Origin: a virus
Length of the DNA stretch: 64,000 bases
Direction: 5' to 3' (one strand)
IMG/VR virus record: IMGVR_UViG_3300048606_000054
Below, in pieces: positions 11,851 to 30,021 of this stretch (positions are counted from its first letter, which is position 1; every line of letters starts with the position of its first letter). A program made the position numbers and the translations under genes. The notes below the pieces were generated by a model, which did not search any database, had not been told where the DNA came from, and saw only the letters and a list, made by a program, of their open reading frames with translations.

Positions 11851-11858
11851 CAAAGATA
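11851..11858 (-). promoter_or_regulatory. Bacteroidota -7 promoter element for the leftward block
   Basis: TATCTTTG on minus strand, with AT-rich upstream sequence. Confidence 0.45.
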
Positions 11859-12375: not shown

Positions 12376-12402
12376 TGGTGTTGATGGGGAATAAACTTTA
12401 AA

Positions 12403-12606: not shown

Positions 12607-12632
12607 TCACTTTCTTTTAAATATACACTATA

Positions 12633-13289: not shown

Positions 13290-13319
13290 CCATTAATTCA
13301 CCTTTAAATACTAAACTAT

Positions 13320-13721: not shown

Positions 13722-13726
13722 CCAGA

Positions 13727-13957
13727 TTGAACCAATTATTTATGAACCGTAAACAATATAAATTCTTCCATAAACCTAGAACTATGGAAGAAATTTCAAA
13801 AGACCTCTTTGGGGATCATTGTGAAGCAAACAGTTTTCAAAACAAGGAAATAAACGCGGGTAATCTTGAAGCTTTCCTAATGGATCATCCCCTAGGAAAG
13901 GAATACGCCAAACAAATAGTTATCCAGAAAACTAAAAAATGCAAGATTACGGCTTAA
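13727..13957 (+). CDS. Hypothetical protein
   Basis: Operon packing. Confidence 0.5.
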   Translation: MNQLFMNRKQYKFFHKPRTMEEISKDLFGDHCEANSFQNKEINAGNLEAFLMDHPLGKEYAKQIVIQKTKKCKITA

Positions 13958-13993
13958 TCCCTCTTTAATTAACACACAGTAAACCTACTTTAT

Positions 13994-14185
13994 ATGGAAA
14001 AGATTGCAACAGGCAGCGGTTATGATTATTACATTGGATGGGATGAAAACAAAAAACCATTTTATAATATTGTCCCGGAAGGTTCTCAGCCTCCTAATGG
14101 AGGATATGGAAAGGAATGGATATTAGGAATAAAGAAAGTTCCAGACCTCTTTGGCCAAATTGAACCCCTCAAAATAACCTCTTGA
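13994..14185 (+). CDS. Hypothetical protein
   Basis: Preceded by AAACCTAC motif. Confidence 0.55.
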   Translation: MEKIATGSGYDYYIGWDENKKPFYNIVPEGSQPPNGGYGKEWILGIKKVPDLFGQIEPLKITS

Positions 14186-14208
14186 TTAACTTAAACCTAC
14201 TTTATTGT

Positions 14209-14397
14209 ATGAACACATACACTATAAAATATCAGGCTGCAACCTATTCAGGAACTAGAACTGTAAAGGCTGAAGATGGAGAGGAAGCAATTAACAAGGT
14301 TAAAGCATGGGTTAGGCGCGAAATGACCCTTCCAATGTATACGGACAGCTACAAAATAATAAGCAGCCATGAATGTGATTGCGAAGACGACGATTAA
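14209..14397 (+). CDS. Hypothetical protein (start revised to MNTYTIKY)
   Basis: AACTTAAACCTAC motif 8 nt upstream of ATG 14209. Confidence 0.55.
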   Translation: MNTYTIKYQAATYSGTRTVKAEDGEEAINKVKAWVRREMTLPMYTDSYKIISSHECDCEDDD

Positions 14398-14750
14398 TTT
14401 TAAAATCTTTTAATAACTACTATATGGATAATAAACTATTATGTACTGAAGGAAAAGCCACAATTGAAAATGGCTACCGAACATGCCCAATTCTTGGTAA
14501 ATATCTCAGCGAATATGTAATAAAATTTGATCAATTACATAGTGCGACTGTAGATGCTAATGACGCAACAGATAAACGCAATGCAGAAAGAATAGTAACA
14601 GCCTGGAATAGCCACGATGATTTGGTAAAAGCCCTTACTGAGGTTTTAGGATGGGGGAAAACAAAGGATGGAAAATTCACCTTTACCACCAGTTCGCAGC
14701 AAGCCGAAGAATTTAAAGAAATTCTACAAAAAGCTAAAATTAAACCATAA
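14379..14750 (+). CDS. Hypothetical protein (true start probably MDNKLLCT)
   Basis: NAERIVTAWNSHDDLVKAL is a recurrent phage small-protein pattern. Confidence 0.55.
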   Translation: MRRRRLILKSFNNYYMDNKLLCTEGKATIENGYRTCPILGKYLSEYVIKFDQLHSATVDANDATDKRNAERIVTAWNSHDDLVKALTEVLGWGKTKDGKFTFTTSSQQAEEFKEILQKAKIKP

Positions 14751-14755
14751 ACAAA

Positions 14756-15313
14756 ATGAAATATCTAGCTATTACAATTTATATAATGATTACATCCTTT
14801 ATTGGAATATTAGGCTATGTAATCGGATTAGGTGAGCGAACTGAGTGGAATATTACTACCGCAATGAATAACCGATGGCCAGATATAGATGCGGCAGCCA
14901 ATTTTAAAAATGAGCAGGTACTATACCCTGACGGAATCCATAAGGACACATTGATAGTATATGACGCGGAATACATTAATAAATGCCTATCTGACGGAAG
15001 ATTGAAAACAGACGGGGATATAATGGAAATACTTAACGAAACAACTGTAAAATACACATCCAATAAATACCTTTCCAAAAATGTAGAAATAGGAAATGGG
15101 GTGCCCGTCTTGCCTATGCCTGGCCAAAACTATCCAATGGCCCCGCCAGAGCCTGCTATAGTTATAGTCGGACTCATTACCAAACAGGAAACAGACGAAA
15201 GAGGATTAACCAGTGTGCAATACGTAAAAGACGGCCAGGAATGGGGCTTGGACTACCTGACAAAAAGCGAATACGATTCAGCGTTTTCTAATTACAAAAA
15301 TTATAAACCTTAA
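14756..15313 (+). CDS. N-terminally anchored membrane protein
   Basis: MKYLAITIYIMITSFIGILGYVIGLG hydrophobic helix. Confidence 0.55.
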   Translation: MKYLAITIYIMITSFIGILGYVIGLGERTEWNITTAMNNRWPDIDAAANFKNEQVLYPDGIHKDTLIVYDAEYINKCLSDGRLKTDGDIMEILNETTVKYTSNKYLSKNVEIGNGVPVLPMPGQNYPMAPPEPAIVIVGLITKQETDERGLTSVQYVKDGQEWGLDYLTKSEYDSAFSNYKNYKP

Positions 15314-15317
15314 CGAA

Positions 15318-15557
15318 ATGGCCTGCACCAAAAAACAGAATACCGGCAGTTGCTCCCACTATCAATGCCCATTTAAAGACCAAACCGAACATGGCTATGA
15401 GTGTGTAGATATATACACCGAGTATGTCAATAAGTGGCTAATTGGATTTTGTGAATGTGGTGAGGGGTGTATTAGCGATTGCTCTTATTCCTGGAAAAAT
15501 GGAGATAATAGCCTTAAAGAGCAAGCCGCCAAACAATTTGTTAACAGTTCTATTTAA
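15318..15557 (+). CDS. Cys-rich small protein
   Basis: CSHYQCP...CECGEGCISDC. Confidence 0.5.
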   Translation: MACTKKQNTGSCSHYQCPFKDQTEHGYECVDIYTEYVNKWLIGFCECGEGCISDCSYSWKNGDNSLKEQAAKQFVNSSI

Positions 15558-15568
15558 TATAAAATGTC

Positions 15569-15823
15569 ATGACAAGAACCATGTATATGCAAAGCCTCAT
15601 GAATGCTACTTATCCCGGAATAGCAATAGAGGCCATAAAAGGAGGCTTTGATGAGGCATGGGAGAGGCTGATTGCTGAAAAGCTATTGAAAGATTATAAC
15701 GCTGGCAATTCTGAAGCTGAATGTATTATTGAATCGGTGGGAGGTCTTTCCATGCAAAAGAGAATGCAGGCAGCAAAAAACATTACATCATCTAAAATAG
15801 TTAGTCATGATCCTGCTAGATAA
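15569..15823 (+). CDS. Hypothetical protein
   Basis: Operon packing. Confidence 0.45.
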   Translation: MTRTMYMQSLMNATYPGIAIEAIKGGFDEAWERLIAEKLLKDYNAGNSEAECIIESVGGLSMQKRMQAAKNITSSKIVSHDPAR

Positions 15824-16028
15824 CATAAACCTAGAAAAATCTTTCTCAAAATTAAAGCAATCATTAATTGAATCCGAAAATCTATTAAACGATGGGAAGT
15901 ATTACCATTACATGAATGCTTATTTAAATCTTAAGGTGGCAGTAAATAAACACCTTTATGATTATGCCGACATTACTCTAGGCTCAAAACCTAGCGATCC
16001 TAACGACCTCTCGCACGTTAATATTTAA
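15807..16028 (+). CDS. Hypothetical protein
   Basis: Operon packing; ends before terminator. Confidence 0.45.
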   Translation: MILLDNINLEKSFSKLKQSLIESENLLNDGKYYHYMNAYLNLKVAVNKHLYDYADITLGSKPSDPNDLSHVNI

Positions 16029-16054
16029 CTTAATAAAGTTTTCATATAGTAATT

Positions 16055-16091
16055 CCCCGGATTGGTTTTTACCAGGGAACCGGGCTTTTTT
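16055..16091 (+). terminator. Intrinsic terminator
   Basis: CCCGG..TGGT-TTTT-ACCA..CCGGG-C-TTTTTT. Confidence 0.55.
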
Positions 16092-16163
16092 AAACATTAC
16101 CCACATTGGGCAGTAAATCGTATTGCATAAGAAATAATATATAATCAATTTTAAAAATTAAAC

Positions 16164-16715
16164 ATGAAAAAAATCACTTTTTTGTTTCTATTACTGAGTG
16201 TAACTGTGGGCTGTTTTGCTCACATAATTACACCAACTTGCGCTACAAATGGAAGATTTAAGTTTCAGGGATCGCTATTCCCTACAAATGGAAATGTGCG
16301 CGTAACTGTGGTAAATTCTCAAGATCAGCCGGTAGGCATTTTTGACACTGTGTTCGCCTCTAAAGCTACATTTACATTCTCTATTCCAAAGCCAGCAAAC
16401 ATTAACTATCGCATAAGGGTACGTAGTCAAAACAGTAGTGGCAATATCATTACCTGGGAGGGATTCAGCCAAACTACTTCAGCGGTATGCAGCACATTAC
16501 CACTTAAATTCGGCTCATTCAAAGTTGAGGATTTGGGCGATAAAGTGGTAAAGGTTTCATGCACTACTTATGACGAAACGGATATGGACAGGATCAACAT
16601 AACAATGAGCCGGGAAGGACTTGAATTTAAAATCGTGCTGGTTCTCATGCCGAGAAATGTTAATACCGAATACACGTACACTGGAATTATTGACCTTAAA
16701 AACCAACTTAAATGA
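16164..16715 (+). CDS. Secreted protein with host T9SS-cargo-like beta-sandwich module
   Basis: MKKITFLFLLLSVTVGCFA signal peptide; TLPLKFGSF...VKVSCTTYDE...ITMSREGLEF resembles the LPVxLxxF-initiated domain of Bacteroidota T9SS cargo. Confidence 0.6.
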   Translation: MKKITFLFLLLSVTVGCFAHIITPTCATNGRFKFQGSLFPTNGNVRVTVVNSQDQPVGIFDTVFASKATFTFSIPKPANINYRIRVRSQNSSGNIITWEGFSQTTSAVCSTLPLKFGSFKVEDLGDKVVKVSCTTYDETDMDRINITMSREGLEFKIVLVLMPRNVNTEYTYTGIIDLKNQLK

Positions 16716-16876
16716 AAAAACTTATAATCCTGGCCATTGTAGCCTGCGCTTTCATTGGCTGTTCAAAAGAGGCCACTATTCAGCAAAAGCCTACTGAGAC
16801 TTATTTATTCAGGGCCGAAGCCGTAAGCATTGGCGGCACTATTAAATACTCAAGCATTGTATCTGTAACCTTATAG
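16712..16876 (+). CDS. 54-aa lipoprotein (not in ORF track)
   Basis: MKKLIILAIVACAFIG|CSKEATIQQKPTETYLFRAEAVSIGGTIKYSSIVSVTL; lipobox; ATGA overlap. Confidence 0.7.
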   Translation: MKKLIILAIVACAFIGCSKEATIQQKPTETYLFRAEAVSIGGTIKYSSIVSVTL

Positions 16877-16897
16877 TAAACTTAAACCTACAAAATC

Positions 16898-17380
16898 ATG
16901 AAAAAAATGACATTTCTGGCGATTCTTATCGCCGCGTTAACGACCACCCGCGCTCAAGTTTCACTCTCTCTGCCTTTTGGTATAAGCACCCTAAAGGCTC
17001 CTACGGTTGGCTTAAACTTGCAAGCCAGAGTCCGAGGGGTAATCCTTGCCGCTGGCTTTGACAATCAAATAAGCCGAGATATTATGAAAGGGAATTTATT
17101 ATGGACAAGGGTAGGAGCCGCGTTTAACCTGTCAGACCTCAACGCCCTGGAAATATCCGCTGGAGCGGCCCAACACAGGCGTAGCAGTGATATTAAGAGC
17201 CTGAATGAGGGGTTAGCCCTTGTAAACGTGCAATATGTACACCAGATGGCATCAAGGCCAGAAGCGGCCTTATTTGCTTCTATAACAGCAACTCAAAAGT
17301 TTGCTATTTTTGCTGGCGGATTAAGGTTTATATTCGGCAAGAATGGAGGGAATGGCTGTCCATCCAAACGGATAAGATAG
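16898..17380 (+). CDS. Putative small outer-membrane beta-barrel protein
   Basis: Signal peptide ...TTTRA|Q; about 8 amphipathic strands ending FAGGLRFIF. Confidence 0.6.
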   Translation: MKKMTFLAILIAALTTTRAQVSLSLPFGISTLKAPTVGLNLQARVRGVILAAGFDNQISRDIMKGNLLWTRVGAAFNLSDLNALEISAGAAQHRRSSDIKSLNEGLALVNVQYVHQMASRPEAALFASITATQKFAIFAGGLRFIFGKNGGNGCPSKRIR

Positions 17381-17399
17381 TAAACTTAAACCTACGCTT

Positions 17400-17501
17400 A
17401 TGAAATTATGGGTAATATGGGGAAGCGCCTGCATTGTTGTTTCAATAATACTATCCTTGTTTTTTAGGCGTAATAAATTAACCAAATTTGAAAAGGAATG
17501 A
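17400..17501 (+). CDS. 33-aa single-TM peptide (not in ORF track)
   Basis: MKLWVIWGSACIVVSIILSLFFRRNKLTKFEKE; preceded by the 18-nt motif; TGA overlaps next ATG. Confidence 0.55.
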   Translation: MKLWVIWGSACIVVSIILSLFFRRNKLTKFEKE

Positions 17502-17683
17502 TCTGCGAAGAATTTGAAAAACTAACTCCAAAAGAGAAGACAGAATTTATTGGAAAGGTGGTTCATGCAATCCAGTCATCTACCAAATTATACCTGATGG
17601 GGAAGGAGATTATAGGATTGGGAGAAATACAAGGATTATTTGAAGGCGTTAAGATACTTCCTAGAGATACTAAAGATGTTTAA
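17498..17683 (+). CDS. Hypothetical protein
   Basis: ATGA coupling; last gene before terminator. Confidence 0.55.
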   Translation: MICEEFEKLTPKEKTEFIGKVVHAIQSSTKLYLMGKEIIGLGEIQGLFEGVKILPRDTKDV

Positions 17684-17724
17684 TCCGTATACCAGTTGTT
17701 CATAACAATGGTGATTTAAAGAGG

Positions 17725-17752
17725 AAGTCCCGGTTAGTGCCGGGACTTTTTT
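17725..17752 (+). terminator. Intrinsic terminator at the convergence of early and lysis blocks
   Basis: AAGTCCCGG-TTAGTG-CCGGGACTT-TTTT. Confidence 0.8.
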
Positions 17753-17804
17753 AGCCAACAAAAAAGGATGACAAAAATTAATCCCAGATTAAAAAATCGA
17801 GATT

Positions 17805-18419
17805 TCAAAGACTTGTTGTATTTAATTCTGTTCGATTTTGATCTACATCTCCTTTAATTCCCTTTACCTTTCCCTTTGCGCTATACTGCCATATTTTGTA
17901 TTTACTCCATCCATTGGGAAGTTTTGGTGTAGCCTTGTTTACATAAGCTGCAAGCCAGAGAGATGTGGTGCCTAAATCATGATCCTTTGGAAGATTGGAA
18001 TTTAAGAACGGGGTATAGCTATACAACATATAATTGTTGTGCTCTAGCGCCACCAACTGAGCAAAGAAAGTTTTAATCCATATCAATACTTCTTTGGGGG
18101 ATAAATTAGCTTTGTTATCCTCAATATCTAACACCAATGGGAGTGTAGTTTCTGGACATTTTTGAATAGTAGATACAAAAAATGTCGCTTCCGCTCTAGC
18201 GTCTTCAATTATATTATGAGTATTTAAACTGGCATAATGATAATATCCAACTGGAATACCAACTGCCTTTGCTTCAACTGAATTATATTTTAATACAGAA
18301 TCAACATACCCAACTCCCTGGCTTGCCTTCATAAAAATGAAATCAAGTTTTGGTGTATTCTTTACTACTTCTGTCCAATATATTAATCCATTATGATGTG
18401 AAATATCGACTCCGTACAT
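17805..18419 (-). CDS. Endolysin, GH25 muramidase
   Basis: GVDISHHNG...FMKASQG...GYYHY...LVLDIED...LWLAAY...WQYS. Confidence 0.9.
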   Translation of the reverse strand: MYGVDISHHNGLIYWTEVVKNTPKLDFIFMKASQGVGYVDSVLKYNSVEAKAVGIPVGYYHYASLNTHNIIEDARAEATFFVSTIQKCPETTLPLVLDIEDNKANLSPKEVLIWIKTFFAQLVALEHNNYMLYSYTPFLNSNLPKDHDLGTTSLWLAAYVNKATPKLPNGWSKYKIWQYSAKGKVKGIKGDVDQNRTELNTTSL

Positions 18420-18432
18420 ACATTTAAGTTAT

Positions 18433-18696
18433 TTAAAGTTCTATGTCATCATCAGAAGCCGCCTGTTCTATGGTTTCTAGAACCATATCAATAAGGCCAT
18501 CATCAATCTTGCTTTTTGTCTTAACCGCAACTTCTTTTAGCAATGTAAAAGAGGAGTGTATGCTCTTAAGAGTGCTGGTATACATCTCTATAGTATTATG
18601 TTCTTTTATCTTTGACAGAATTTCCGACAATTCGGCTTGTCCTACTGCCTTGATAGCTGGCAAAAATGTGCTTACTAAGATTTCTTTTAGATTCAT
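18433..18696 (-). CDS. Lysis-region hypothetical protein
   Basis: Between holin and endolysin; TKSKIDD pattern. Confidence 0.5.
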   Translation of the reverse strand: MNLKEILVSTFLPAIKAVGQAELSEILSKIKEHNTIEMYTSTLKSIHSSFTLLKEVAVKTKSKIDDGLIDMVLETIEQAASDDDIEL

Positions 18697-18729
18697 AATT
18701 GTTGATTTTATTGTTAATAATCTCTCTAT

Positions 18730-19038
18730 TTATTTGGCATCTGAAAGTGTGCCGGTTGACGTATCCTGTATCTTTACTTCAACATCTCCTTCTTTTACGG
18801 CCTTTACTATTTCAGAATTGGTAATTACCACCTCGGATGGAGAAAGGAAATTCTTCAAAATGTACCCCAATCCTCCTCCCGCCGCGCTAATCCAAATAAG
18901 ATTCCAATTGAAGGTCAAAGAACCTTGATTTATAGAATTTAACATTGTCGTAAAAATTGGCGTTAGGACAGCAACTACGAGTCCTTTTATTGCATCTCTC
19001 CAATTAAGAGTAAACTGTGATGAGGTTGTTTGTGCCAT
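18730..19038 (-). CDS. Putative holin
   Basis: FTLNWRDAIKGLVVAVL...FNWNLIWISAAGGGLGYILKNFL two-TM pattern next to endolysin. Confidence 0.65.
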   Translation of the reverse strand: MAQTTSSQFTLNWRDAIKGLVVAVLTPIFTTMLNSINQGSLTFNWNLIWISAAGGGLGYILKNFLSPSEVVITNSEIVKAVKEGDVEVKIQDTSTGTLSDAK

Positions 19039-19048
19039 TGTATTGGTT

Positions 19049-19369
19049 TTATTTTTTAGTATACAAAAGAATTATTGATATAGCCGTTAGTACCCACGGC
19101 ACAAATTTTAAAAGATCGCTTTTGCCCTCCTGCTTTATCTTGTAATCAGTTAGTATTTTGATTTCTTTTCTTAACTCATCTACTACCCTGTCAAATACTT
19201 CTCTAGGTATATACTGTTCTTGAATGCCACGCAATCTCGCTGCTTCCCCATTCAAATCTTTCAACCTTCTTTTATACTCCTTCGCTTGAAGTTTCAAGGC
19301 ACGACTTAACGCTTTAAGTTTATTATTGAAGTATTTCCTTATCGTTTCTATAGTCCATCCTTTGGTCAT
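19049..19369 (-). CDS. Coiled-coil protein with C-terminal TM anchor (lysis-associated)
   Basis: Heptad-rich body, FVPWVLTAISIILLY C-terminus. Confidence 0.55.
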   Translation of the reverse strand: MTKGWTIETIRKYFNNKLKALSRALKLQAKEYKRRLKDLNGEAARLRGIQEQYIPREVFDRVVDELRKEIKILTDYKIKQEGKSDLLKFVPWVLTAISIILLYTKK

Positions 19370-19373
19370 TTAT

Positions 19374-21743
19374 TTAATTTACACAGAAAGTAGTATTGTT
19401 TTCGTCTGTATACCCTGGAGGCAAAAACCAGTATACTTTTTTCCAGTCAACGGGTATTGGCTTATTTAAACAAAACTTGTTATTAGACAGTATAATTGGA
19501 TCGGAATTATTATTAGCATCCCCTCTTAGAGCGCCAAGTTTTTTTGGAAAGTTTATCTGATTGCCGTTGAAGTCAAGCCCTTGTTTTGGATTAATTTCTA
19601 CAGTGTTGACATAAGCCTTCCAATATATACTCTCTTCCCCATTTACATTTTTAACTGTGTTTCCTACATTCGTAATTGTATTATTATAACACTCCATCAC
19701 TCCATAGCCAAAAAACTGTATACCATTACCTGTCCCATTAGTTACTGTATTGTTATATACATTACTGTTGGTATTTCCTCCGCTGATTATACCAGCTCTT
19801 TGACCATCAATGTCGGCTATGCCAAAATTTGTTACTTTGTTATTGAAGATAAGACCGCCATTACGGGCGTTTGACAACTGTATTCCGTCCCAACCTGTAT
19901 TTATAACAATGCAATTGGAGATAGTCACACTGTCCTGCCTCTGCGGAACCAGACCTCCGTGGGATGGATCACCTCCGGGGTATGTATGGCCTATGTACAT
20001 GCCCTCGCCAGCCACATCGTGGACATAACAATTATTGATGGTTATCTTGGTGGATACATAATTCGGGTACTGCGTCCACGGTTGTCCTTCTATTGGGTCT
20101 TGCTTGCCATATATGCCCACCCCGCCCGCGCTTGTGCCATCTGGCAGGTTTGGCCCCGCCTCGATCCATTCCATCGTGAAATGATTAGCCCTGTTGAATC
20201 CAAAGTTTTTACATCTGAATCCGTAGGCCAATCCACCGAATCCATTGCCAAGGATTTTTACATGATGTACGTCCTTCTGCAACCTGATTGGCCCGGTTAC
20301 ATTTACCAGACCACCGGAGTTTATAATTACAATATCGCGACATGGATCACCTCCAAAGCTATCTATTTCAATAACAGAATAATCGCCAGCGGGAATCTTT
20401 AGCGTATCTCCTCCTTTCCACCCTTTCGCGCTAGCGTCCAGAATATAAATCTCACCAGGCTTTGTCGGTTCTACTATATAAGAAACTGACTTGTTTGGAT
20501 TGCAAGCTGGATTGGGAGCGGGAGTCGTTTTAAGCGATTGCCTCGCCATCCATTGGTAAAGGTTCTGACTAATGCCACCTAAAGAAAAGTTGACGGGTTG
20601 AACTCCCTTGCCCCCATAGAACTGTTCCCAGCAGCAATGTGAGCCATCACTGAAATTGGTTTGTACATATATGGCGGAGTTGGGAACTATGGAATTCATG
20701 AAATTCACCCTGGTGGGCATGCCCCTATTATCCAATCGCTGTTCAAATCCGAGTAGCTTTCCGCCTGATTTGGCGAAATTGGCGAACAGTCCTGGGTATG
20801 GCGAATTATCGTCGGGTACAACTCCCTGCACTTCCACAACCGCGGCTATCTGTGAGGCGTATGTATAAGGGCCGCCTAAAGGATCGCCAGTAACGAAGGT
20901 CGTGGCGCACCAGCCGCCATGAGATAATCCAGTCAGATACAATCTCTTTGGATCAACCCGGTATAATGATTTAATCGTTTGTATTCTTTGATTAATAATA
21001 TTTTCAGTTGGGTACGCCGCTGGAGGCTGTAGGCTGATGATAATAAACTCAACCGTGGCTCCATCAACTGATACGTTCCCATTCCATCCTTGGGTTATAT
21101 ATGCGCCGGGGCCGTTGGCGATAACTGCCGGGGCGTTCGTTCCTATTTCGCCTGTTCCGGGGAAAAAGATAATCGTTGGATAAGTCGCCGTTGAACCGTT
21201 GTAGCTCGCCGGCAAATGCACATAAGCGTTCCAGCCGCCGATTTGAGTTAGTGTTTGTCCTGTTGAGGTTGTAGCGGCCCCTACGGTAATATTAACATCG
21301 TCATACCCGGTCGCGCCCTTGTCATCGGTTACCGTTAATCTGAAACCATATGTGCCCTGCACAAGATTTGATACTCCTGTAATGGCGCTGAATTGATTGG
21401 TGAAACTGAGGGTGGTTGGCCCCGATACCCTCGACCACGAATAACCTGTAACCGTTCCGTCAGAATCAGTCCCGGAGCCGATAAGGGTTACAGCATTGGT
21501 TGGGAGTTTTATCGACTGATCACCTCCGGCCTTTGATACAGGTGGTTTGTTTGGAACAGGGGGCTTGTATTTTCTTACTGATTGTTCAAGAAAGCTGGAT
21601 GTTATAGTCTGCTTTACAGTTACAATTGACTGGATTAAAGTGTCTAGGTTTGCCAATGGAAGCACCTGCGTTGTTCGGGAAGTATCCTGAGAAAAGCAGG
21701 TTGCTGAAAATAGTAAGAATAGTATAATTATTAGTTTTTGCAT
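19374..21743 (-). CDS. Secreted PKD + alpha/beta-hydrolase + right-handed beta-helix protein (789 aa from ATG 21743)
   Basis: MQKLIIILFLLFSATCFS|Q; PKD (NKPPVSKAGGDQSIKLP...GTYGFRLTVTDDKGATGYDDVNITV); GLSHGG nucleophile elbow; parallel beta-helix repeats (ISNCIVINTGWDGIQLS). Confidence 0.8.
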   Translation of the reverse strand: MQKLIIILFLLFSATCFSQDTSRTTQVLPLANLDTLIQSIVTVKQTITSSFLEQSVRKYKPPVPNKPPVSKAGGDQSIKLPTNAVTLIGSGTDSDGTVTGYSWSRVSGPTTLSFTNQFSAITGVSNLVQGTYGFRLTVTDDKGATGYDDVNITVGAATTSTGQTLTQIGGWNAYVHLPASYNGSTATYPTIIFFPGTGEIGTNAPAVIANGPGAYITQGWNGNVSVDGATVEFIIISLQPPAAYPTENIINQRIQTIKSLYRVDPKRLYLTGLSHGGWCATTFVTGDPLGGPYTYASQIAAVVEVQGVVPDDNSPYPGLFANFAKSGGKLLGFEQRLDNRGMPTRVNFMNSIVPNSAIYVQTNFSDGSHCCWEQFYGGKGVQPVNFSLGGISQNLYQWMARQSLKTTPAPNPACNPNKSVSYIVEPTKPGEIYILDASAKGWKGGDTLKIPAGDYSVIEIDSFGGDPCRDIVIINSGGLVNVTGPIRLQKDVHHVKILGNGFGGLAYGFRCKNFGFNRANHFTMEWIEAGPNLPDGTSAGGVGIYGKQDPIEGQPWTQYPNYVSTKITINNCYVHDVAGEGMYIGHTYPGGDPSHGGLVPQRQDSVTISNCIVINTGWDGIQLSNARNGGLIFNNKVTNFGIADIDGQRAGIISGGNTNSNVYNNTVTNGTGNGIQFFGYGVMECYNNTITNVGNTVKNVNGEESIYWKAYVNTVEINPKQGLDFNGNQINFPKKLGALRGDANNNSDPIILSNNKFCLNKPIPVDWKKVYWFLPPGYTDENNTTFCVN

Positions 21744-21765
21744 TGAATATTTAATTATTAGTTTT

Positions 21766-24603
21766 TTAATAAACGATTGCGCTGACCCTAAAGGTTCCAC
21801 TTGCTGGATTAATATTACCTGCTGCCTGACTATTTAAAAATCTTACCGTAACCGTGTTAGCTGATGAAACCCAGGCACTATAGGAGCTATTGGCGGCCGT
21901 ACTTGCATTTGGAACACCTACAGATACGGATTCGCCTCCGGATAATCCCGTTACCGTAATAGTTAGATCACTAGATGTATTTGGCGAGGTGTCGGGAAAA
22001 TCCAGTGTCGCCGTGTTGGTAAGTGTTTTAGCGAATGTGTACCTGGTTGTAGAGGCTGTTCCAAAATAATTAGTTCCATCGAATTCCATAGCCCCCGCTT
22101 CTGGAGTTGTCATATTGGTTCCAGAAGTAAATTTTATTGGAGCCGACACGGCGGCGGTTGTTCCAGCGGGAAGAGTCAATCTTCCGGCAGCTACCGTTGT
22201 GGTTCCTATAATCAGACTGCCCGCGCTGGTTGCCCGGAAAGCCTGAGTTCCTGATATGTTAACTCCTACAAGATCGTTTGATAACGCGCCCAAATAGAAG
22301 CCGGTTCCAGCGGGAGTGGAGCTGTTTGAAAGTAGAAGAGTAGCGCCAGCCGAGTTATTGGAAACGATGATAGTCCGTGTATCCGCGTTTCCAGCGCCCA
22401 AGATAACATTGAACACGGATAGCGCCGCCTGTACGCCTGTATAGCTGCTCGCGACTCTCAATGAACCTGTCGGAATGTTAACAGCTATATTATCCGTAGT
22501 GGCTCCTGAAGCGGAGAAGGAGGCCCCTATATTTGTTCCAGAAGTGGCGTTTGTATTTGTTGTCGCCACATCCAGACCCGTCGCTGTAACGCCGTTGGTT
22601 GCATTTGCTCCGCTTACCCTGATTTCAAGGGCTTTGTTTCCCGCCGCGAGAGCGGTTGATGTAGTATTAAGCGAAAGCAGGTTTCCCGTAGTAAGCGAAC
22701 TGCTGTTCCATTTAAAGGACGTTCCCGTGGTAAGTGAATTATTGTCTATGGTGTGAAATGTTTCCGTATTGCTTCCATTCGTCCACGCGTTTAGTTCCGC
22801 GTCATCCCATGATAATGTCTGGGTGCCTGTAGGATTGGTAATTGAATTCCAAGACGCGCCTCCACCACCTCCGGCGAACGCCCACGCGGTTTTAAATACA
22901 TCCCCGTTTGAATTAATTCCTAAAATCTTAATTCCGGAAGTATCAACTGGAGCGGTAGCGATATTTTTAATCGTTACAGTATCGGTAAAAAGACTTGAAC
23001 CATTAACCATGAATTTTTTATATAGCCGATATTGGTTCATTCCCACGGCATGGTTTACTACCATATTACCGTTTCTCCACCACCTTGTCATATTGGCGTG
23101 ATTCGCGCCCGTTTCTATTTGAACAAAAAAACCAGTTCCATTATTATCATAGACTCCTGAGCTATAACCCTCGCTTCTAATATACGCGCCCCTGCTATCC
23201 CTGCTTGTGGGCATATAAGCCCCATACAGTGCCGTGTACGCGCTGTCTTGCGAACTAATGGTCATGACTCCCTCATCGAATATAGACTTTGGCATTTCAA
23301 CGGCAAGACTAAGAGCGGCGGCTATGTTCGCGTGCAACGAATCGGTATACCAACCCTTACCGGTTACATAGGTTCTATATCGTAGACCTTGTGTATTATT
23401 TTGACGCGTAGGTGTGGTACTTGGGCCGAAATAAGCGAATCCTTTATTTACAAGTATATCCGTATCGCCAGCCGCGTAAAATGAATACCCGTTGTCAACC
23501 GTGTTTGTATACCTATATTGAGGGTCTACGTACAATCCGTATCCATTTTTTACAGTAGCTACTAATAATGTCTTCGCCTTGGTAGCGCCACTGATAAGTG
23601 GATACCCATCGCCATAAACCCGTAAGCCAAACATATTTTCCCAGTAATTACCTGCCTCATAGGTCGCCATGTTGATGGCGGTCTGGTAACTTTTATACAT
23701 GGTCGTAAACCCGCTAATTCCAGCGCCAACAATCTTTTTCCTTCTGGTATTGTCGATAACTCTCATAAGGTCAATACTTGTACGGGCGGCGCTTATTGGG
23801 AATAAGGGCAATGATGTTTCTGGAACAATATTCATATTATATCCCCAACTATCCCCAATGTCCAATTGACCAAAAATTACATTCCCACTCTGGCCGTCTC
23901 TTCCCACTTTTAAAACCATGCTATCTCTTGGAGGAAAATATTGATAAACAAATTCTCCCCCTTGTCCGGCAAGTAGTTCATTTCTGGCCCCCGCTTTAAA
24001 GATCGTGGAGTTTGAATCCCTTGAAATCCTGGTAATAGTCGATAGAGCGCCCCCATAAAATACAGAATCTATATCTCCATTAGCTTCCGAGTAAACCCTT
24101 TGAAGACCTAGCGTAGCGGGGTTATAAGTAAGAAGATATGGATACTTTGGCAGTATGCCGTTCAATGATTGAGCTTCTGGTAGGTTTCCTAAAATTAAAG
24201 CGTTATACCTACTTCCATTCTTTAAGTGACTTAATACTTGAATATATGTCAACCTATTCATGCTATCTCCTAAAATTGTTGTATCTCCTGACATGGCAAT
24301 GCCATTGGCTACCAACGATGGGCCTACTCCTATTCGAAGCCACGCCGTAGCGGCCTGGTTCCTCATCCACAACACATTCCCTGTCCTTATGGTTATGCCA
24401 GGTATATTTTTTATAAATGAAATATTCGCTGTAACGGTATCTTGAAAATTTGTTCTATATATAAATCCGCTGTCACTCCCCAGTCCTCCTTTGGAATATA
24501 CCTGAGTAGTGGAGGAGCCTAAAGATTGTTGCAAGGGGAATTGGCCGTATGAATAAATCGAACAAGCCCAAAAAAATAATATTGTGAACAGTTTTTTCAT
24601 CAA
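21766..24603 (-). CDS. Tail-fibre/spike-like protein carrying an N-terminal Sec signal peptide
   Basis: MKKLFTILFFWACSIYSYG|Q; G/S/T/N-rich fibre body; C-terminal ATLDFPDT...LTITVTG...WVSSANTVTVRF...NPASGTFRV module typical of phage fibre tips. Confidence 0.7.
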   Translation of the reverse strand: MMKKLFTILFFWACSIYSYGQFPLQQSLGSSTTQVYSKGGLGSDSGFIYRTNFQDTVTANISFIKNIPGITIRTGNVLWMRNQAATAWLRIGVGPSLVANGIAMSGDTTILGDSMNRLTYIQVLSHLKNGSRYNALILGNLPEAQSLNGILPKYPYLLTYNPATLGLQRVYSEANGDIDSVFYGGALSTITRISRDSNSTIFKAGARNELLAGQGGEFVYQYFPPRDSMVLKVGRDGQSGNVIFGQLDIGDSWGYNMNIVPETSLPLFPISAARTSIDLMRVIDNTRRKKIVGAGISGFTTMYKSYQTAINMATYEAGNYWENMFGLRVYGDGYPLISGATKAKTLLVATVKNGYGLYVDPQYRYTNTVDNGYSFYAAGDTDILVNKGFAYFGPSTTPTRQNNTQGLRYRTYVTGKGWYTDSLHANIAAALSLAVEMPKSIFDEGVMTISSQDSAYTALYGAYMPTSRDSRGAYIRSEGYSSGVYDNNGTGFFVQIETGANHANMTRWWRNGNMVVNHAVGMNQYRLYKKFMVNGSSLFTDTVTIKNIATAPVDTSGIKILGINSNGDVFKTAWAFAGGGGGASWNSITNPTGTQTLSWDDAELNAWTNGSNTETFHTIDNNSLTTGTSFKWNSSSLTTGNLLSLNTTSTALAAGNKALEIRVSGANATNGVTATGLDVATTNTNATSGTNIGASFSASGATTDNIAVNIPTGSLRVASSYTGVQAALSVFNVILGAGNADTRTIIVSNNSAGATLLLSNSSTPAGTGFYLGALSNDLVGVNISGTQAFRATSAGSLIIGTTTVAAGRLTLPAGTTAAVSAPIKFTSGTNMTTPEAGAMEFDGTNYFGTASTTRYTFAKTLTNTATLDFPDTSPNTSSDLTITVTGLSGGESVSVGVPNASTAANSSYSAWVSSANTVTVRFLNSQAAGNINPASGTFRVSAIVY

Positions 24604-25307
24604 GGAGTTATTAATATATAAGAAAGTTTGTCGCCTTCATTCCATCCATTGCCGTAATTACTAATAAGCAATGCATCGCTTGGTAATGATTTGGTGATAT
24701 ATGGGCTTCCATCTCCAGCATCCGACATATCTACAATAATGTTTCCAACAAATAAAACTACCCAACTATTGGCAAAAGCTGAAAGAATCCACGCGCTATC
24801 GCCGACATTAGGAGCGCCTGGAGTTGAACCAACTACAAAAGAAAGAGGTTGTTTTTGTATACTTCCAGAACCACCTCCGGAGTTATTTCCCTGCACCCAT
24901 AAATCATTTGAAGCCTTAAATACGTCTACGGCGCTATTAGCCGGTATTTCATCTGAAGTTGCTCCGAGAGGAGTATAATAAACTAATGACCCTAATAGGG
25001 GTATTGGGGAAGCGGTCATATTTACAAAAACGTACTCATTGTAAATATTGTCGTTCCATGTTAATGAAGCTGGGGTTGATCCGGTAAAAAAAACTACCGG
25101 CCTATCTGCCACCACTGCACCACTATCGTTTACAACATCGGCTTTTTCCCAATTAAGTGGAGACTGCTCAATGAATGTCAATAACCCATTCTCCACATTA
25201 TTGTGTAGCTGCCCGGTTATCTCCTCGTTGCCGTTTGGCTTGATGTTAGCATTGATATACGCCAACAGGGATGGAAAATTCGGGAATGTTTGACTGGGCA
25301 AAGGCAT
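24600..25307 (-). CDS. Tail-fibre adaptor/short fibre
   Basis: N-terminal IKPNGNEEITGQLHNNV resembles the fibre-anchor motif of Bacteroidota phages; coupled to the 945-aa gene. Confidence 0.5.
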   Translation of the reverse strand: MPLPSQTFPNFPSLLAYINANIKPNGNEEITGQLHNNVENGLLTFIEQSPLNWEKADVVNDSGAVVADRPVVFFTGSTPASLTWNDNIYNEYVFVNMTASPIPLLGSLVYYTPLGATSDEIPANSAVDVFKASNDLWVQGNNSGGGSGSIQKQPLSFVVGSTPGAPNVGDSAWILSAFANSWVVLFVGNIIVDMSDAGDGSPYITKSLPSDALLISNYGNGWNEGDKLSYILITP

Positions 25308-25310: not shown

Positions 25311-26087
25311 TTATTTAGTCGCCAAAGCAACTTGTTTTTGTTGTGCTGAAATAACTGAAAAAGTCTGATCCTTGGTAAAATTTATATACCACGTCTTCAA
25401 TTGATCCAAAAATTCCGGCCTTACTTGTTCGGGCCATTCCAATGGAGTGCTCGCGTTTTTGTCATACACAATCATATCCCCTGATCCTGTTTGAACATTT
25501 CCGGCAGTAAGCGTATACTTGAAAGTAGCCGGTTTTGGCTCTACATAATAATCAATGACAACCACGCTTACTTTTCGGGGAGCAACGCGGAAATAATCAT
25601 TTATTTGTGTTATCCCAGGTTTTTCAATTGTTGGCCCCTTTGTCAAATGTTCGCAATAGGCGCTCCACCTCTGGTTGTCTACCATCTGAACTTTAACCTC
25701 TTTGATAGTATCGTAATACTCATCTGTAATCTCTTCCTGGTTTTTAAACCCATCACATTTACCGTCATCCACATCTTTCGCTGGAAGTGTCCCAGATGAA
25801 TGAATTATTATTCTCGCGGAAGCGAATCTTCCATAGCTTGTCGGCTTTTTTGCTATGCCGTAATATCCACTCTTGCTATCTACGGCCATGTTTTTTGATT
25901 TCAAAAAAGGAAACAGCTTGTCCTTTGCTTCCTGGCTTTTCTCCGCTTCATTTGTCCACTTATCCCATAGGATAAAACTGATTTCATTTACCGCTCGTAT
26001 GAAATCGGTTTCTGGCCGGAACCACCCGTTTATACTAGTATTTACCTGACTATTAAAATCAAGCCACAATGAATATGGATCAATCAT
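25311..26087 (-). CDS. Tail ring/adaptor protein (crAss-like ring family)
   Basis: 258 aa; helical N-term, beta core with YYVEPKPATF, C-term helix (LEWPEQVRPEFL). Confidence 0.55.
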   Translation of the reverse strand: MIDPYSLWLDFNSQVNTSINGWFRPETDFIRAVNEISFILWDKWTNEAEKSQEAKDKLFPFLKSKNMAVDSKSGYYGIAKKPTSYGRFASARIIIHSSGTLPAKDVDDGKCDGFKNQEEITDEYYDTIKEVKVQMVDNQRWSAYCEHLTKGPTIEKPGITQINDYFRVAPRKVSVVVIDYYVEPKPATFKYTLTAGNVQTGSGDMIVYDKNASTPLEWPEQVRPEFLDQLKTWYINFTKDQTFSVISAQQKQVALATK

Positions 26088-29000
26088 TACGCACAGCCTC
26101 CATCTGTTACGGTAAATTCTACCAAGTCACTCGAAGTATATCCGAATCCTCCGAAATTATTATTTCCAGCCGCGTTGAATGTTATGCACTGTTGGAATAT
26201 TCCATTCTTAGTCAACACCACATTTACATTGGTTATGGGGGTAATGGAACCTCCGCTTATCGCCATGTTTATAACGGTGTTGAATCCCGAATGTTCGGCT
26301 ATAAGCTGATCTCCTGGAGCTACAGGGAACGAGCTTGGGGGAACAATGGTGTATATGCCAGAAGGCGTTAAAGAATCCACTGTAGCGATTGTAGAATTAT
26401 TCCAAATTATCAATGAACCTACTCCGGGAGAAGAATCATCAATAATAGAAATAGTACATCCGTTCACAACAGGAACGCTTCCGAATACATACTTATCGGT
26501 TCCGTCAAAAACTCCATAGAATGTTCCGGTTCCTGAAGATAAAGCCACTGTGAACGCGTCGCTGGTTATCCCCTGTACTACTACTGGACTGTAGGTTCCA
26601 TCTGCCACATAGAAATTAATCTGAGCGGAAGGAGCCAGAGAAGCGGGGGCTACCACCTCTGTTCCTCCAAATGAAACAGATACATTAAAGTTTGTGGCCG
26701 CGGTATTGTTTAGAATATATGAGTTATTTGGAGGATTGATAATAAACGCGGCGGGAGATGATGCCACTCCAAAGAATCCACTACCAGCGTCACAAACGGG
26801 TTGTATGGTAGCAAAGAATGTTCCATATACTCCTGGAGGAGGCGCTATCACGATTGGATCGCCATTAGCGTAAACCTGAGTAAATGATCCTCCATTTGGA
26901 TAGCTTACATTTACTTTTACAGAATCAAGTCCAACTACAGCCGAATAGGTAACATTAATATTTGTTCCGTCATACGCCGCGCTGAATGAATTTATTCCCG
27001 TACAAGCTGGCGTGTCATATACGGATTCAGAACAAAGTCTTCCATCAGAATAAATTGGCCTAATGTAAACCCTGTATTGACCATTAGGCACTCCTGAGAT
27101 CGTGTATGGAGAATCCCCCGGAAGAATGCCAGGAATAGTGGTATAAACTGGTGTCACGGTATTGTCTATCCTCGCGTATCTTATAGTATTTGAAATTGCG
27201 TCTGGATGGGTAAATGTTACAATCAGATCCACGGTTGATCCACTTGGAGAAGCATCGTCAACTGCAACGTTAAAGATATTGTATGGCGCACACGGATTAC
27301 CTCCCGCGCACAGATTAACCATATTGCAGAAAGCGGTCAATACATCTGAATTTACGGCTCCATAAGTAAGCATTGTTAAAAACGCCTCATTGGGGGCTAT
27401 TTGAGAGCAAGCGCCTGCTTTTGTGGCCAAGAACACATCGCTAGGCTGCATGGCTACGAGTGGCAACGCTGGGAACCTCGCGAGCATTCCAGCGCAATTA
27501 ACCGGGCTTAAAGCAACTATATAATCAATTGTTTCGCACCCTCTGGCAAGCAATTGTGTGATAAACGTCGTCAATGGTGTTCCCGCGGCCACTGTTGTCG
27601 TTGTCTTTACCTGCGTGGTAGTATTTATGGAACAAATTTCATATGCCGCGGATGTTACCAGTTGACTATCATCAAAAGCGCAGATATAGTTGATAATATT
27701 CTGAACTACTTCGTTGGCACTAACGGGAACAAATCCTGTGCAATTTTTAGAAAGACCGGCCAGATAGTTAGTGGCAGATATTTTATATGATAACTGCTGA
27801 ATATCGTTGCCGTTTGCAGCAGATGAAATCAATACCGTCTGTCCGGATGGATTGGTTACTACAAATGTTCCCAGACCAAGACCATTCAAATAAACTTGTA
27901 ATCCAGCGAGATTTGTAAGATTGAATGAATAGGTTAACGGCGTAGTTACTGAGCCAATTTTAATTCCAGTTAAAAGAGCATAAGTGGTATTAACAGGAAT
28001 ATTACTTAAGGTAAGCTCATAATCACAAGTAGCAGAAGAACTAAATATGCAATCTCCATCTACAATCAGAGTGAATGCTCCTCCAGAACTTCCAATTAAA
28101 GCCTGCCAGAAGTTAAGTAAGGATGCATTATTTGCAATAGCGTTTCCAAGATCAAATCCAAACTGGGTAACATCTACAGTAAGACAATATGTTTTTGTAT
28201 AACCATCTCCACTTAAAGAAGGAGTAAAGGCAAACGCTGTTGTTTCAGCCGGAGAGCCATCACATATCTTAACAATATATTTTACATCATGTAAAAGAAA
28301 TTGAATATTGAATCCGTTTACTACAACAGAGCCGTCTATATCTCCTCCTTCTGGAACAATAGAGAAGGTATATCCATCGAATGCGGATGATCCAGTTGGA
28401 ACGATTCCAGTAGCAGCGGCGCAACAATCGCAATCAAATCCACCAATTTCTTTAATCTCATCAATTATCGCAGGCACATCAACTCCGGTTAATGGTTGCG
28501 CTATCCCTATCCACACCTGGAACATTAGCGGCGTGATAAGATTCATTTTGTTCTGCGCCTCTTGCACGTTGGTACAAGTTCCGGCAGATATACTTTCGCT
28601 TAATTTGGCAAATTCACAAACTAATGGCAACAAATCAATATTACAGAACACGCCAAAAGTGTCATTCTTTAAATATTTTATCCTTACGTGTACATCATTA
28701 CCAAAATCATAATCATATATAGATGTATACAAGAATTGGTATCCTTTACCTGAAAAGGTAATAGGAACCATTGCGGTTGAAAAATAATTTATCTGGAATG
28801 GAGCCGGAACAACACCCGTATTATCCATTGGGAAATTTACCCGCAATACAGATGATCCAACCGTTCCTTCCAGTCCTTTGTAAGAAGTATTTGTGGTATC
28901 TTGGAAAAATATCCTGGCCTGATCACATTTTGTTTGAATGGTTAACGATCCAACACCATAAGTATTCTTGGAATCTTTTGTATTTCCATTGGGGCGGCAA

Positions 29001-29341
29001 ATAGACGCTTCTTGGGTGATAGAATAAATATTACCATCACCATCCTTTACATAGGTTATTAGCTGGTATGGAGCGCCCGAAAATTCAATTTGATTGAACG
29101 GACGCGGCCAATTTGAAGAAATTACAAAATCTGACCAAATGCCGGTTATATCTGGATCGCTCTCCAATCCTTCGTGTATTATAGTAGTGGTGGGAGATTT
29201 AGCAATAAACCACCAAGTACAAGAAGCCAAATCTGTTCCTTCTGAAAGGTTTTGAAGAGTAATAAGGGGCTGCACACCGGATATGTCCCATGTCGCCAAT
29301 ATCCTTAAACTACTTATATCGTTTGATCCATTTATTGTCAC
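26087..29341 (-). CDS. Large Cys-rich structural protein (fibre hub/collar-like) with FN3/Ig-like repeats
   Basis: 1084 aa; YTISGVPNGQYRVYIRP FN3-like segment; about 28 Cys. Confidence 0.55.
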   Translation of the reverse strand: MTINGSNDISSLRILATWDISGVQPLITLQNLSEGTDLASCTWWFIAKSPTTTIIHEGLESDPDITGIWSDFVISSNWPRPFNQIEFSGAPYQLITYVKDGDGNIYSITQEASICRPNGNTKDSKNTYGVGSLTIQTKCDQARIFFQDTTNTSYKGLEGTVGSSVLRVNFPMDNTGVVPAPFQINYFSTAMVPITFSGKGYQFLYTSIYDYDFGNDVHVRIKYLKNDTFGVFCNIDLLPLVCEFAKLSESISAGTCTNVQEAQNKMNLITPLMFQVWIGIAQPLTGVDVPAIIDEIKEIGGFDCDCCAAATGIVPTGSSAFDGYTFSIVPEGGDIDGSVVVNGFNIQFLLHDVKYIVKICDGSPAETTAFAFTPSLSGDGYTKTYCLTVDVTQFGFDLGNAIANNASLLNFWQALIGSSGGAFTLIVDGDCIFSSSATCDYELTLSNIPVNTTYALLTGIKIGSVTTPLTYSFNLTNLAGLQVYLNGLGLGTFVVTNPSGQTVLISSAANGNDIQQLSYKISATNYLAGLSKNCTGFVPVSANEVVQNIINYICAFDDSQLVTSAAYEICSINTTTQVKTTTTVAAGTPLTTFITQLLARGCETIDYIVALSPVNCAGMLARFPALPLVAMQPSDVFLATKAGACSQIAPNEAFLTMLTYGAVNSDVLTAFCNMVNLCAGGNPCAPYNIFNVAVDDASPSGSTVDLIVTFTHPDAISNTIRYARIDNTVTPVYTTIPGILPGDSPYTISGVPNGQYRVYIRPIYSDGRLCSESVYDTPACTGINSFSAAYDGTNINVTYSAVVGLDSVKVNVSYPNGGSFTQVYANGDPIVIAPPPGVYGTFFATIQPVCDAGSGFFGVASSPAAFIINPPNNSYILNNTAATNFNVSVSFGGTEVVAPASLAPSAQINFYVADGTYSPVVVQGITSDAFTVALSSGTGTFYGVFDGTDKYVFGSVPVVNGCTISIIDDSSPGVGSLIIWNNSTIATVDSLTPSGIYTIVPPSSFPVAPGDQLIAEHSGFNTVINMAISGGSITPITNVNVVLTKNGIFQQCITFNAAGNNNFGGFGYTSSDLVEFTVTDGGCA

Positions 29342-30021
29342 GCTACTAGTTTTTTCTTTGTGGAAAATCTGTAATCAATAGGAGTGTTTATTATATCATC
29401 TATAGTCCAACCCAATTTTAATCTTTTATTAAAAGTACCATTACTCATGCCTATCTTTTCTGCAATTTTCTTTGCACATAAAGTTTCTCCCATATAAGTA
29501 AGCATTATGTTTGTGCTTTTATTTTGATTATTTTCTTTTGAAGTTAAGAAACAACAATAGTCTGAAGAATATAATTTTCCCGGTTTTTCTATAGATAATT
29601 TATCTTTATCTAATTGCAAACCCTTAACCCATCCATTTTTTAATGCCCAATCGGCAAACTTAGTAAAATCATTTTTCCATTCTGCACATACAAGAACGCC
29701 CTTAGCGCCATAATTTACATACTCCTTACACGTTTTACTATAGCATCTCCTAATCATGCCCTTCCAAACGTTCCAAATAGGATGGTTATATAAGCCGTGC
29801 TTTCTGAATGTATCCCCTATTATCTCTCTTTGCAAGCATCCGCAAGATTTTGACCTTCCGGAAAGAAGGGCATCTAACCTCATTTCAGTTATAATCCCGC
29901 ATTCACACAATGTTTTAATTTTTCTTCTTTTGTTGACGATGCCCAAATCCTCTATTACGGTAAGTCTGCCGTATTTATTTTGAATAATATCCACTGTTTT
30001 GTATATAAATCCAGATGCCAT
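29338..30021 (-). CDS. HNH-type homing endonuclease
   Basis: YGRLTVI...CECG...SGRSKSCGC...WKGMIRRC...YGAKGV.VC.EW...LQLDKD...Y..DYCCF. Confidence 0.8.
   Translation of the reverse strand: MASGFIYKTVDIIQNKYGRLTVIEDLGIVNKRRKIKTLCECGIITEMRLDALLSGRSKSCGCLQREIIGDTFRKHGLYNHPIWNVWKGMIRRCYSKTCKEYVNYGAKGVLVCAEWKNDFTKFADWALKNGWVKGLQLDKDKLSIEKPGKLYSSDYCCFLTSKENNQNKSTNIMLTYMGETLCAKKIAEKIGMSNGTFNKRLKLGWTIDDIINTPIDYRFSTKKKLVA

Follow-up and report, generated by a model that had tools for sequence, protein, structure and literature searches.

A fibre-like late phage protein with a conserved Bacteroidota-type export leader, and how it might reach the phage particle

The late operon and its fibre-like gene

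In a 64,000-nucleotide stretch of viral DNA (IMG/VR record IMGVR_UViG_3300048606_000054; the whole stretch is called the window here) there is a late phage gene whose product, of 944 amino acids (aa), is built like a receptor-binding fibre and begins with a signal peptide (the leader) of the kind found on exported proteins of Bacteroidota. To judge from the pattern of conservation among its relatives, this protein is very probably exported and its leader cleaved. As a preliminary description of the same DNA had stated, the gene lies within the virion operon: it stands where late operons of phages have their fibre genes, distally in the late module and ahead of the lysis genes, and the same position is taken in the relatives L002, L165, L168 and L171-L173. 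The large terminase of the window (PHROG 6681, E 1e-32) has distant kin in Maribacter phage Panino and the Flavobacterium 'elemo' podoviruses. It is followed by leaderless open reading frames (ORFs) of 1497, 813, 371, 506, 303 and 231 aa, which from their position and their Panino- and phi18:3-like layout are probably the portal, scaffold and capsid genes, and then by an HNH insert, a Cys-rich 1084-aa gene, the 258-aa, 235-aa, 944-aa and 789-aa genes, three small ORFs and a GH25 endolysin (Table 1).

The ORF caller's version of the fibre-like gene (21766..24603, minus strand) uses a TTG one codon before the ATG at 24600. The ATG is the likely translation start, giving 944 aa beginning MKKLFTILFFWACSIYSYGQFPLQQ. 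The gene of 945 aa with a signal peptide that had been described earlier is thus borne out in all but its length, which is 945 only from the TTG; likewise, the Gln at +1 stands, and is Gln21 counting from the TTG and Gln20 counting from the ATG. The junction with the preceding 235-aa gene, given as an ATGA overlap, is in fact TGATG, the ATG of the 944-aa gene overlapping the TGA of its neighbour by one base. A start further downstream was considered and rejected: the next Met is residue 79, within the conserved N-terminal module, and the leader itself is conserved. A letter-for-letter copy of the gene is present on a 91.8-kb contig.

Table 1. Features of the window, with the fibre-like gene and its parts first
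Feature	Position	Strand	Remarks
944-aa fibre-like protein, very probably exported	21766..24600	-	ATG at 24600, stop 21768..21766
Signal peptide, residues 1-19 (MKKLFTILFFWACSIYSYG)	24544..24600	-	Cut predicted before Gln20; leaders kept in relatives
N-terminal module, ~residues 20-95	24316..24543	-	Alignment A4; begins right at the cleavage site
Conserved central domain, ~residues 96-620	22741..24315	-	Alignment A3; six sequon columns
Ser/Thr/Gly/Asn-rich fibre-like stretch, ~residues 621-857	22030..22740	-	Residues 780-857 are part of the C-terminal module
C-terminal beta-sandwich knob, lectin-like, residues 858-944	21769..22029	-	AlphaFold2 pLDDT ~90; fold matches
235-aa leaderless gene	24600..25307	-	TGATG coupling to the 944-aa gene; conserved core gene
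Second protein with predicted export, 789 aa, leader MQKLIIILFLLFSATCFSQ/D	19374..21743	-	PKD, esterase-like stretch, right-handed beta-helix, 12 Cys
Lysis cassette	17805..19369	-	Three small ORFs, holin-like by position; GH25 endolysin 17805..18419
Leaderless late proteins, 258 aa and Cys-rich 1084 aa	25311..29341	-	Conserved in relatives; candidate cytoplasmically assembled tail parts
1084-aa protein	26087..29341	-	28 Cys
HNH homing-endonuclease gene	29338..30021	-	PHROG 374, E 1e-55
1497-aa ORF	38131..42624	-	28 Cys
2134-aa ORF	46689..53093	-	0 Cys
698-aa protein	3347..5443	-	PD-(D/E)XK nuclease domain and FtsK/HerA-type ATPase
Second HerA-like ATPase, 555 aa	6841..8508
Small leader-bearing ORF, 111 aa	10327..10662	-
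Small leader-bearing ORF, 183 aa	16164..16715	+
Small leader-bearing ORF, 160 aa	16898..17380	+

A conserved leader that is very probably cut

The N-terminus of the product, MKKLFTILFFWACSIYSYG/QFPLQQ (here and below a slash marks the predicted cut), has a leader made up of MKK, LFTILFFWACSIY and SYG, with two Lys in the n-region, about 13 uncharged hydrophobic residues in the h-region, and Ser17, Gly19 and Gln20 at positions -3, -1 and +1 of the cleavage site. Bacteroidota signal peptidase I substrates expose a Gln that is cyclised to pyroglutamate, stabilising extracytoplasmic proteins (the Q-rule: PMC5837995; PMC10653852). The leader of the 944-aa protein has the same tripartite build as those of such substrates, with small residues at -3 and -1 and a Gln at +1 that is conserved across the family; but the known Q-rule substrates are cellular envelope proteins, whereas the 944-aa protein comes from a phage late operon and has the build of a tail fibre.

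Relatives were collected by a word-indexed search (17 proteins) and an exhaustive HMMER search (4,118 cluster representatives). Those that share the central domain and have a complete N-terminus are all leader-bearing. Three others appear leaderless, but begin inside the leader or the N-terminal module (one of them at a contig end), and so look truncated or mis-called. About 100 of the 150 best representatives bear a leader, including ones that share only the C-terminal 160 residues, and so do 57 of the 73 complete ORFs that bear the C-terminal module on uncultivated viral contigs. Of 114 leader-bearing relatives, 107 continue after the h-region with small-x-small and then Gln, a residue that makes up only 2.6% of the mature parts. 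Conservation of a Gln that is relevant only after cleavage is a strong argument that the leader is cut. The Bacteroidota-type signal peptide with its Q-rule residue, as claimed in the preliminary description, is therefore real and conserved, and the question raised there, whether homologues keep it, is answered by the complete central-domain relatives, every one of which does.

The same account had found no lipobox, no transmembrane anchor and no type IX secretion system (T9SS) domain in the protein, and we found none either. The mature part has no Cys, and its highest Kyte-Doolittle mean over 19 residues is 1.33, with no transmembrane-like stretch; neither Pfam nor NCBIfam gave a match to a T9SS C-terminal domain, whether of type A (Por_Secre_tail) or of type B. 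A lipoprotein reading was rejected: the sole Cys of the leader follows F-W-A, outside any lipobox, and is not conserved in relatives.

Within the 64-kb window the leader filter flags just seven ORFs of at least 80 aa, which, with the Gln pattern of the relatives, speaks against a leader arisen by chance. Three further small ORFs with Bacteroidota-type leaders lie outside the late operon, two of them encoded by the other strand within a block that spans 12.6-17.4 kb. The large late proteins of the cultured Maribacter phage Panino have no leader, so not every related podovirus shares the trait.

A protein with exchangeable ends

The N-terminal module, of about 75 residues, follows the pattern Q-[FY]-P..Q.[IL]G....V...G...DT..AN...PG..I....W.R....W, and recurs on the fibres of unrelated phages (alignment A4). 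The central domain behind it found no match in Pfam, PHROGs or the PDB (the last searched also with a profile), and a pattern scan of IMG/VR contigs found no instance of it. The AlphaFold2 model of residues 1-640 had a mean predicted local distance difference test score (pLDDT) of 52, too low for a fold search, and the Atlas model was equally poor.

The best fold matches of the knob are to the Kp32gp38 depolymerase (Z 8.5), the phi297 tailspike (6.8), the LKA1 tailspike (6.5) and R-pyocin fibres (6.0-5.7), with weak Foldseek E-values and with Z scores of a size that can reflect a common arrangement. In the C-terminal domains of these proteins (9QRM, Kp32gp38; 4RU4, LKA1 gp49; 4RU5, phi297 gp61; 6CXB and 6CL6, R1/R2) the same beta-sandwich stands at the end of the chain as in the modelled knob, although the 72-85 residues that align are just 12-19% identical and the known proteins are leaderless. 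The C-terminal module as a whole, of about 160 residues, keeps about 60% identity across very different proteins (alignment A1) and occurs 380 times in uncultivated viral contigs. Pfam, PHROGs and NCBIfam hold no family for the 944-aa protein or its 235-aa neighbour, and tblastn searches of 50,697 deposited phage genomes with the C-terminal 176 aa, or with the whole 944-aa protein, had no hit below E 0.5. The earlier suggestion that the protein ends in a module typical of phage fibre tips thus holds for the fold but not for the sequence. Different C-termini are found on relatives of the central domain, one of them being K1-lyase_C, the C-terminal domain of a capsule lyase of the phage tailspike type, and the modules of the family are exchangeable at both ends.

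Sites for periplasmic O-glycosylation

The Bacteroidota O-glycosylation sequon D-(S/T)-(A/I/L/V/M/T) occurs eight times in the 944-aa protein against 3.5 expected, a number that 2% of shuffles reach. Most other late proteins of the phage have no more sequons than expected, the exception being the 303-aa protein (three against 0.8). Leader-bearing members of the family have 841 sequons where composition predicts 419 (2.0-fold), whereas seven relatives without a hydrophobic N-terminus, admittedly a small control group, have 18 against 29.8 (0.6-fold; Mann-Whitney p = 0.002). Six sequon columns are kept in at least nine of 12 central domains, with the proviso that conserved D-S/T motifs could be structural. 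Such a contrast within one family is what exposure to a periplasmic glycosylation system predicts, and the 944-aa protein is, on these patterns, likely to be glycosylated in the periplasm.

A variable cassette of leader-bearing late proteins

The gene is not a lone oddity. To judge from the leaders predicted around it and in its relatives, it is best seen as opening a variable cassette whose genes encode exported late proteins. The 789-aa protein next to it has a leader of its own, and shows 69% identity along its whole length to the product of a gene adjoining the fibre homologue of L001, a small element that bears an integrase and is otherwise unrelated; fibre and enzyme therefore appear to move as a unit. 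In L171, L172 and L173, which have the same gene order as the window, almost all of the genes that separate the 235-aa core gene from the lysis genes have leaders, and L173 has six such genes in a row (10701..18677; 651, 191, 342, 133, 1227 and 86 aa) between its 239-aa core gene and its lysis genes.

Comparable arrangements occur in other types of phage, where leaderless head and tail genes are followed by a leader-bearing fibre, further leader-bearing proteins (polysaccharide lyase, DUF4082 and small proteins), and then holin-like, lipoprotein and endolysin genes. In a siphovirus-like prophage the fibre gene comes after a putative tape-measure gene (1154 aa) and distal-tail genes; in small podovirus-like genomes the relative of the fibre, placed after the head genes, is the only large late protein, and no other large late protein able to bind a receptor was seen in the small phages L165, L167 and L168. 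The L001 element itself (about 5300..22800, some 17 kb) sits beside host glycosyltransferase genes, and its cargo comprises Cys-rich capsid-like genes, the leader-bearing fibre, a PKD/beta-helix enzyme and a lysis cassette that includes a VanY endolysin; neither a terminase nor a portal could be recognised within this stretch. In the lysis cassette of the window, the ORF 19049..19369 ends in a hydrophobic stretch.

On the other side of the fibre gene, the 235-aa gene has 108 homologues of 230-240 aa, on contigs of up to 90 kb, in a clade of phages of about 75-92 kb. It had been proposed as the fibre anchor. It is a conserved core gene of the clade, and where other phages have fibres with the N-terminal module, the flanks that were fetched contain no homologue of it; an anchoring role is thus unsupported, translational coupling being all that speaks for it. 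When the C-terminal half of the 235-aa family was examined for co-variation with the N-terminal module of the fibre, a weak BLAST hit to the 175-aa product of a neighbouring gene in L168 was not upheld (hhalign probability 2%).

Of the remaining late proteins, the Cys-rich 1084-aa protein has a conserved N-terminus, and a C-terminus and length that vary (1093, 815 + 174 and 950 aa in L171-L173); it matched no family, and may be a tail or receptor-binding protein that is assembled in the cytoplasm. The HNH gene lies inside the structural block and is missing from that place in L171 and L173. The giant 2134-aa and 1497-aa ORFs, which flank the terminase region, have no Pfam or PHROG match; in size and place they recall gp123 (1935 aa) and gp114 (1612 aa) of phi18:3, virion proteins detected by mass spectrometry. 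Near the other end of the window are the nuclease-ATPase and the second HerA-like ATPase of Table 1.

Analogous proteins in cultured Cellulophaga phages

Leader-bearing late proteins are also present in two cultured phages for which proteomic information exists. In the siphovirus phi10:1 (NC_021802), gp091, gp092, gp093 (pectate lyase) and gp094 (tail fibre protein) are annotated as structural 'based on experimental MS/MS proteomics analysis' (MS/MS, tandem mass spectrometry), and their leaders end SAQ/T, FGQ/N, SAQ/T and NAQ/T. In the podovirus phi18:3 (NC_021794), whose late-gene layout resembles that of the phage in the window, gp085-gp087 have leaders and the same annotation. The leader-bearing genes sit just before the lysis genes in both phages, so that the likeness to the window extends to Bacteroidota-type leaders (here ending in Gln), to annotation as fibre, pectate lyase or tail protein, and to the placing of the block. 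The Cellulophaga proteins nevertheless have no sequence similarity to the 944-aa or 789-aa proteins, and their presence in virions is stated in an annotation note on MS/MS results, whereas the phage in the window is known from its genes alone. With that difference in mind, their detection gives indirect support to the idea, put forward in the preliminary description, that a protein of this sort may reach phage particles. The two phages, both of Cellulophaga baltica (phi10:1 19101..22392, L176; phi18:3 2545..6584, L178), also have in common an endolysin that is 94% identical.

How might an exported fibre reach the particle?

A possible course of events is as follows. The 944-aa protein would be exported through the Sec translocon and cut before Gln20 by signal peptidase I, and a host glutaminyl cyclase would convert the Gln to pyroglutamate. 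It would then be O-glycosylated at the conserved D-(S/T)-(A/I/L/V/M/T) sites and fold in the periplasm. The 789-aa enzyme would take the same route, the pair forming a variable exported cassette between the conserved particle genes and the lysis genes. Only when the holin opened the inner membrane would the exported proteins meet the particles in the cytoplasm, and the fibre would bind to the particle at lysis and serve as host-recognition gear. The last step, attachment after holin opening, which leans on the Cellulophaga analogues, is in our judgement evenly poised between true and false. More broadly, and more tentatively, it is possible that many Bacteroidota phages of several morphotypes send receptor-binding fibres and depolymerases through Sec, to be pyroglutamate-trimmed, glycosylated and folded in the periplasm before they join particles once the holin has acted, although we place this generalisation a little below an even chance.

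Several points weigh against attachment to the particle. The leader calls come from our own simple heuristic filter together with conservation among relatives. The Cellulophaga proteins are analogues and not homologues, and no homologue of the 944-aa protein has been seen in a particle; moreover, co-purification of exported proteins or pieces of envelope could account for their detection by mass spectrometry. We identified no docking partner, the hhalign comparison of the 235-aa family with the L168 protein being not significant, and the N-terminal module is found also in phages whose fetched flanks contain no homologue of the 235-aa gene or of any late gene of the window. The N-termini of phi10:1 gp093 and phi18:3 gp086 are 83% identical over residues 1-118, and those of phi10:1 gp094 and phi18:3 gp087 are 59% identical over the first 63-70 residues, yet no similarity was found between the portals, capsids or other head and tail proteins compared in these two phages. 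In ordinary fibres it is the N-terminus that fits the phage's own tail and the tip that is exchanged. A portable N-terminus is the opposite of this, and suggests a partner that is common to different phages of one host, possibly a component of the host envelope.

Homologues on bacterial chromosomes point in the same direction. Species-representative genomes contain the C-terminal module at 233 places, almost all in Bacteroidota, always at the extreme C-terminus and mostly behind a leader. Among these is a gene of about 393 aa that has both leader and knob and is present in conserved housekeeping synteny in Altibacter, Aequorivita, Halomarinibacterium, Ulvibacter and relatives, with two or three tandem copies in Ulvibacter and Halomarinibacterium. 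Being in chromosomal housekeeping loci, its products cannot be virion parts. The layout of this gene, as seen in several genera of Flavobacteriaceae (L052, L055, L062, L065, L071 and L078, about 9200..10450), is a leader, a 'QVGIGTT' start, a fibre stretch and the knob; the same loci contain other leader-bearing 'QVGIGTT' fibre proteins, with an endosialidase-chaperone (S74) or YadA-head module.

Alternative fates for the 944-aa protein

Might the protein be exported and yet never join a particle? This is the most serious alternative, and we regard it as possible though somewhat doubtful. The protein would have an accessory or surface role in or on the envelope, or would be freed at lysis: it might be a phage-borne surface fibre anchored by the N-terminal module, a free lectin or depolymerase set stripping capsule away near the lysing cell, or a binder that covers the receptor glycans of cell debris. 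No docking step is needed to account for the leader, the Q-rule pattern and the sequons; the cassettes, N-termini included, are transferred whole between unrelated types of phage; the clade has leaderless candidates for true tail proteins, such as the 1084-aa protein; and exported phage proteins are already known in Bacteroidota phages (PMC10367356; PMC7468147). The tandem chromosomal homologues, with S74 and YadA-head fibre proteins in the same loci, fit this fate as well.

The model for a surface fibre of this kind is provided by the mosaic adhesive trimer (MAT) fibres of Bdellovibrio bacteriovorus, cell-surface fibres that have a leader, a conserved beta-rich N-domain and mosaic tips (PMC10769870). 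The architecture of the 944-aa protein matches them, by their published description, in its leader, in the N-domain right behind it and in its interchangeable binding tips. MAT bodies, too, are assembled from parts of phage fibres, and the chromosomal Bacteroidota relatives of the C-terminal module look alike; but MATs are cellular proteins on the surface of a predator from another phylum, whereas the 944-aa protein is phage-encoded and adjoins lysis genes. It also speaks against a role off the particle that MS/MS detected analogous proteins with leaders in preparations of purified Cellulophaga phage particles, that L165, L167 and L168 would be left with no large late candidate for receptor binding, that fibres set free with a functional knob would vie for receptors with the progeny of the same phage, and that no route across the outer membrane is evident. 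Such a role would thus explain everything except the mass-spectrometric data and the small phages' shortage of receptor-binding candidates.

It is very improbable that the hydrophobic N-terminus goes unused for export, with the fibre assembling in the cytoplasm and the segment serving assembly or membrane contact at infection. This would accord with the textbook route of tailed-phage assembly and with the existence of leaderless proteins that have the same C-terminal module (L091, L092, L095 and L100), but the near-invariant Gln after small-x-small can be understood only if cleavage takes place there, the excess of sequons is restricted to members with a leader, and the neighbouring Cys-rich enzymes carry the same kind of leader. 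Equally improbable is that the C-terminal module, which is always terminal, almost confined to Bacteroidota and usually accompanied by a leader, is an unrecognised sorting domain (for example for type IX secretion) that takes the protein to the cell surface, for T9SS models do not match it, although they do match a neighbouring host protein (Por_Secre_tail), its modelled fold matches the end domains of tailspikes and pyocin fibres, T9SS domains being absent from the top 50 matches in each of two fold searches, relatives of the same central domain have quite different C-termini, and the module is found also on leaderless proteins.

Relation to known systems and significance

That phage genes may use host export signals is not without precedent: Q-rule exported genes have been noted in Porphyromonas gingivalis prophages (PMC10367356), and phage cargo with T9SS C-terminal domains in the 'Cryophage' (PMC7468147). 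These cases share with the phage in the window the use of host export signals and a variable gene content, but the proteins concerned are not described as fibre-like or as occupying the fibre position, and the T9SS domains of the Cryophage cargo are absent from the 944-aa protein. The literature that we searched contained no paper describing export leaders on fibre-like proteins of tailed phages, or discussing the leaders of the Cellulophaga proteins. The earlier statement that no example had been described is therefore roughly right for the searchable literature, although examples were present, unremarked, in the GenBank records of phi10:1 and phi18:3.

In the textbook view a tailed phage is put together entirely in the cytoplasm, and neither a conserved host-type export signal on fibre-like proteins nor the accompanying selection for host glycosylation sites agrees with this. 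If the exported fibre does join the particle, this would be a two-compartment assembly route new for tailed phages, in which host-recognition gear can be glycosylated and capped by the host. That would bear on the prediction of host range, on phage engineering, on the timing of lysis relative to assembly, and on the expression of receptor-binding proteins of Bacteroidota phages, which might misfold or be without glycans when produced in a cytoplasm. Both this reading and the one in which the protein stays off the particle are testable now in the cultured Cellulophaga phages. If the latter is correct, a large class of 'tail fibre' annotations in the Bacteroidota virome would be wrong, and would be hiding exported phage effectors that act on the envelope.

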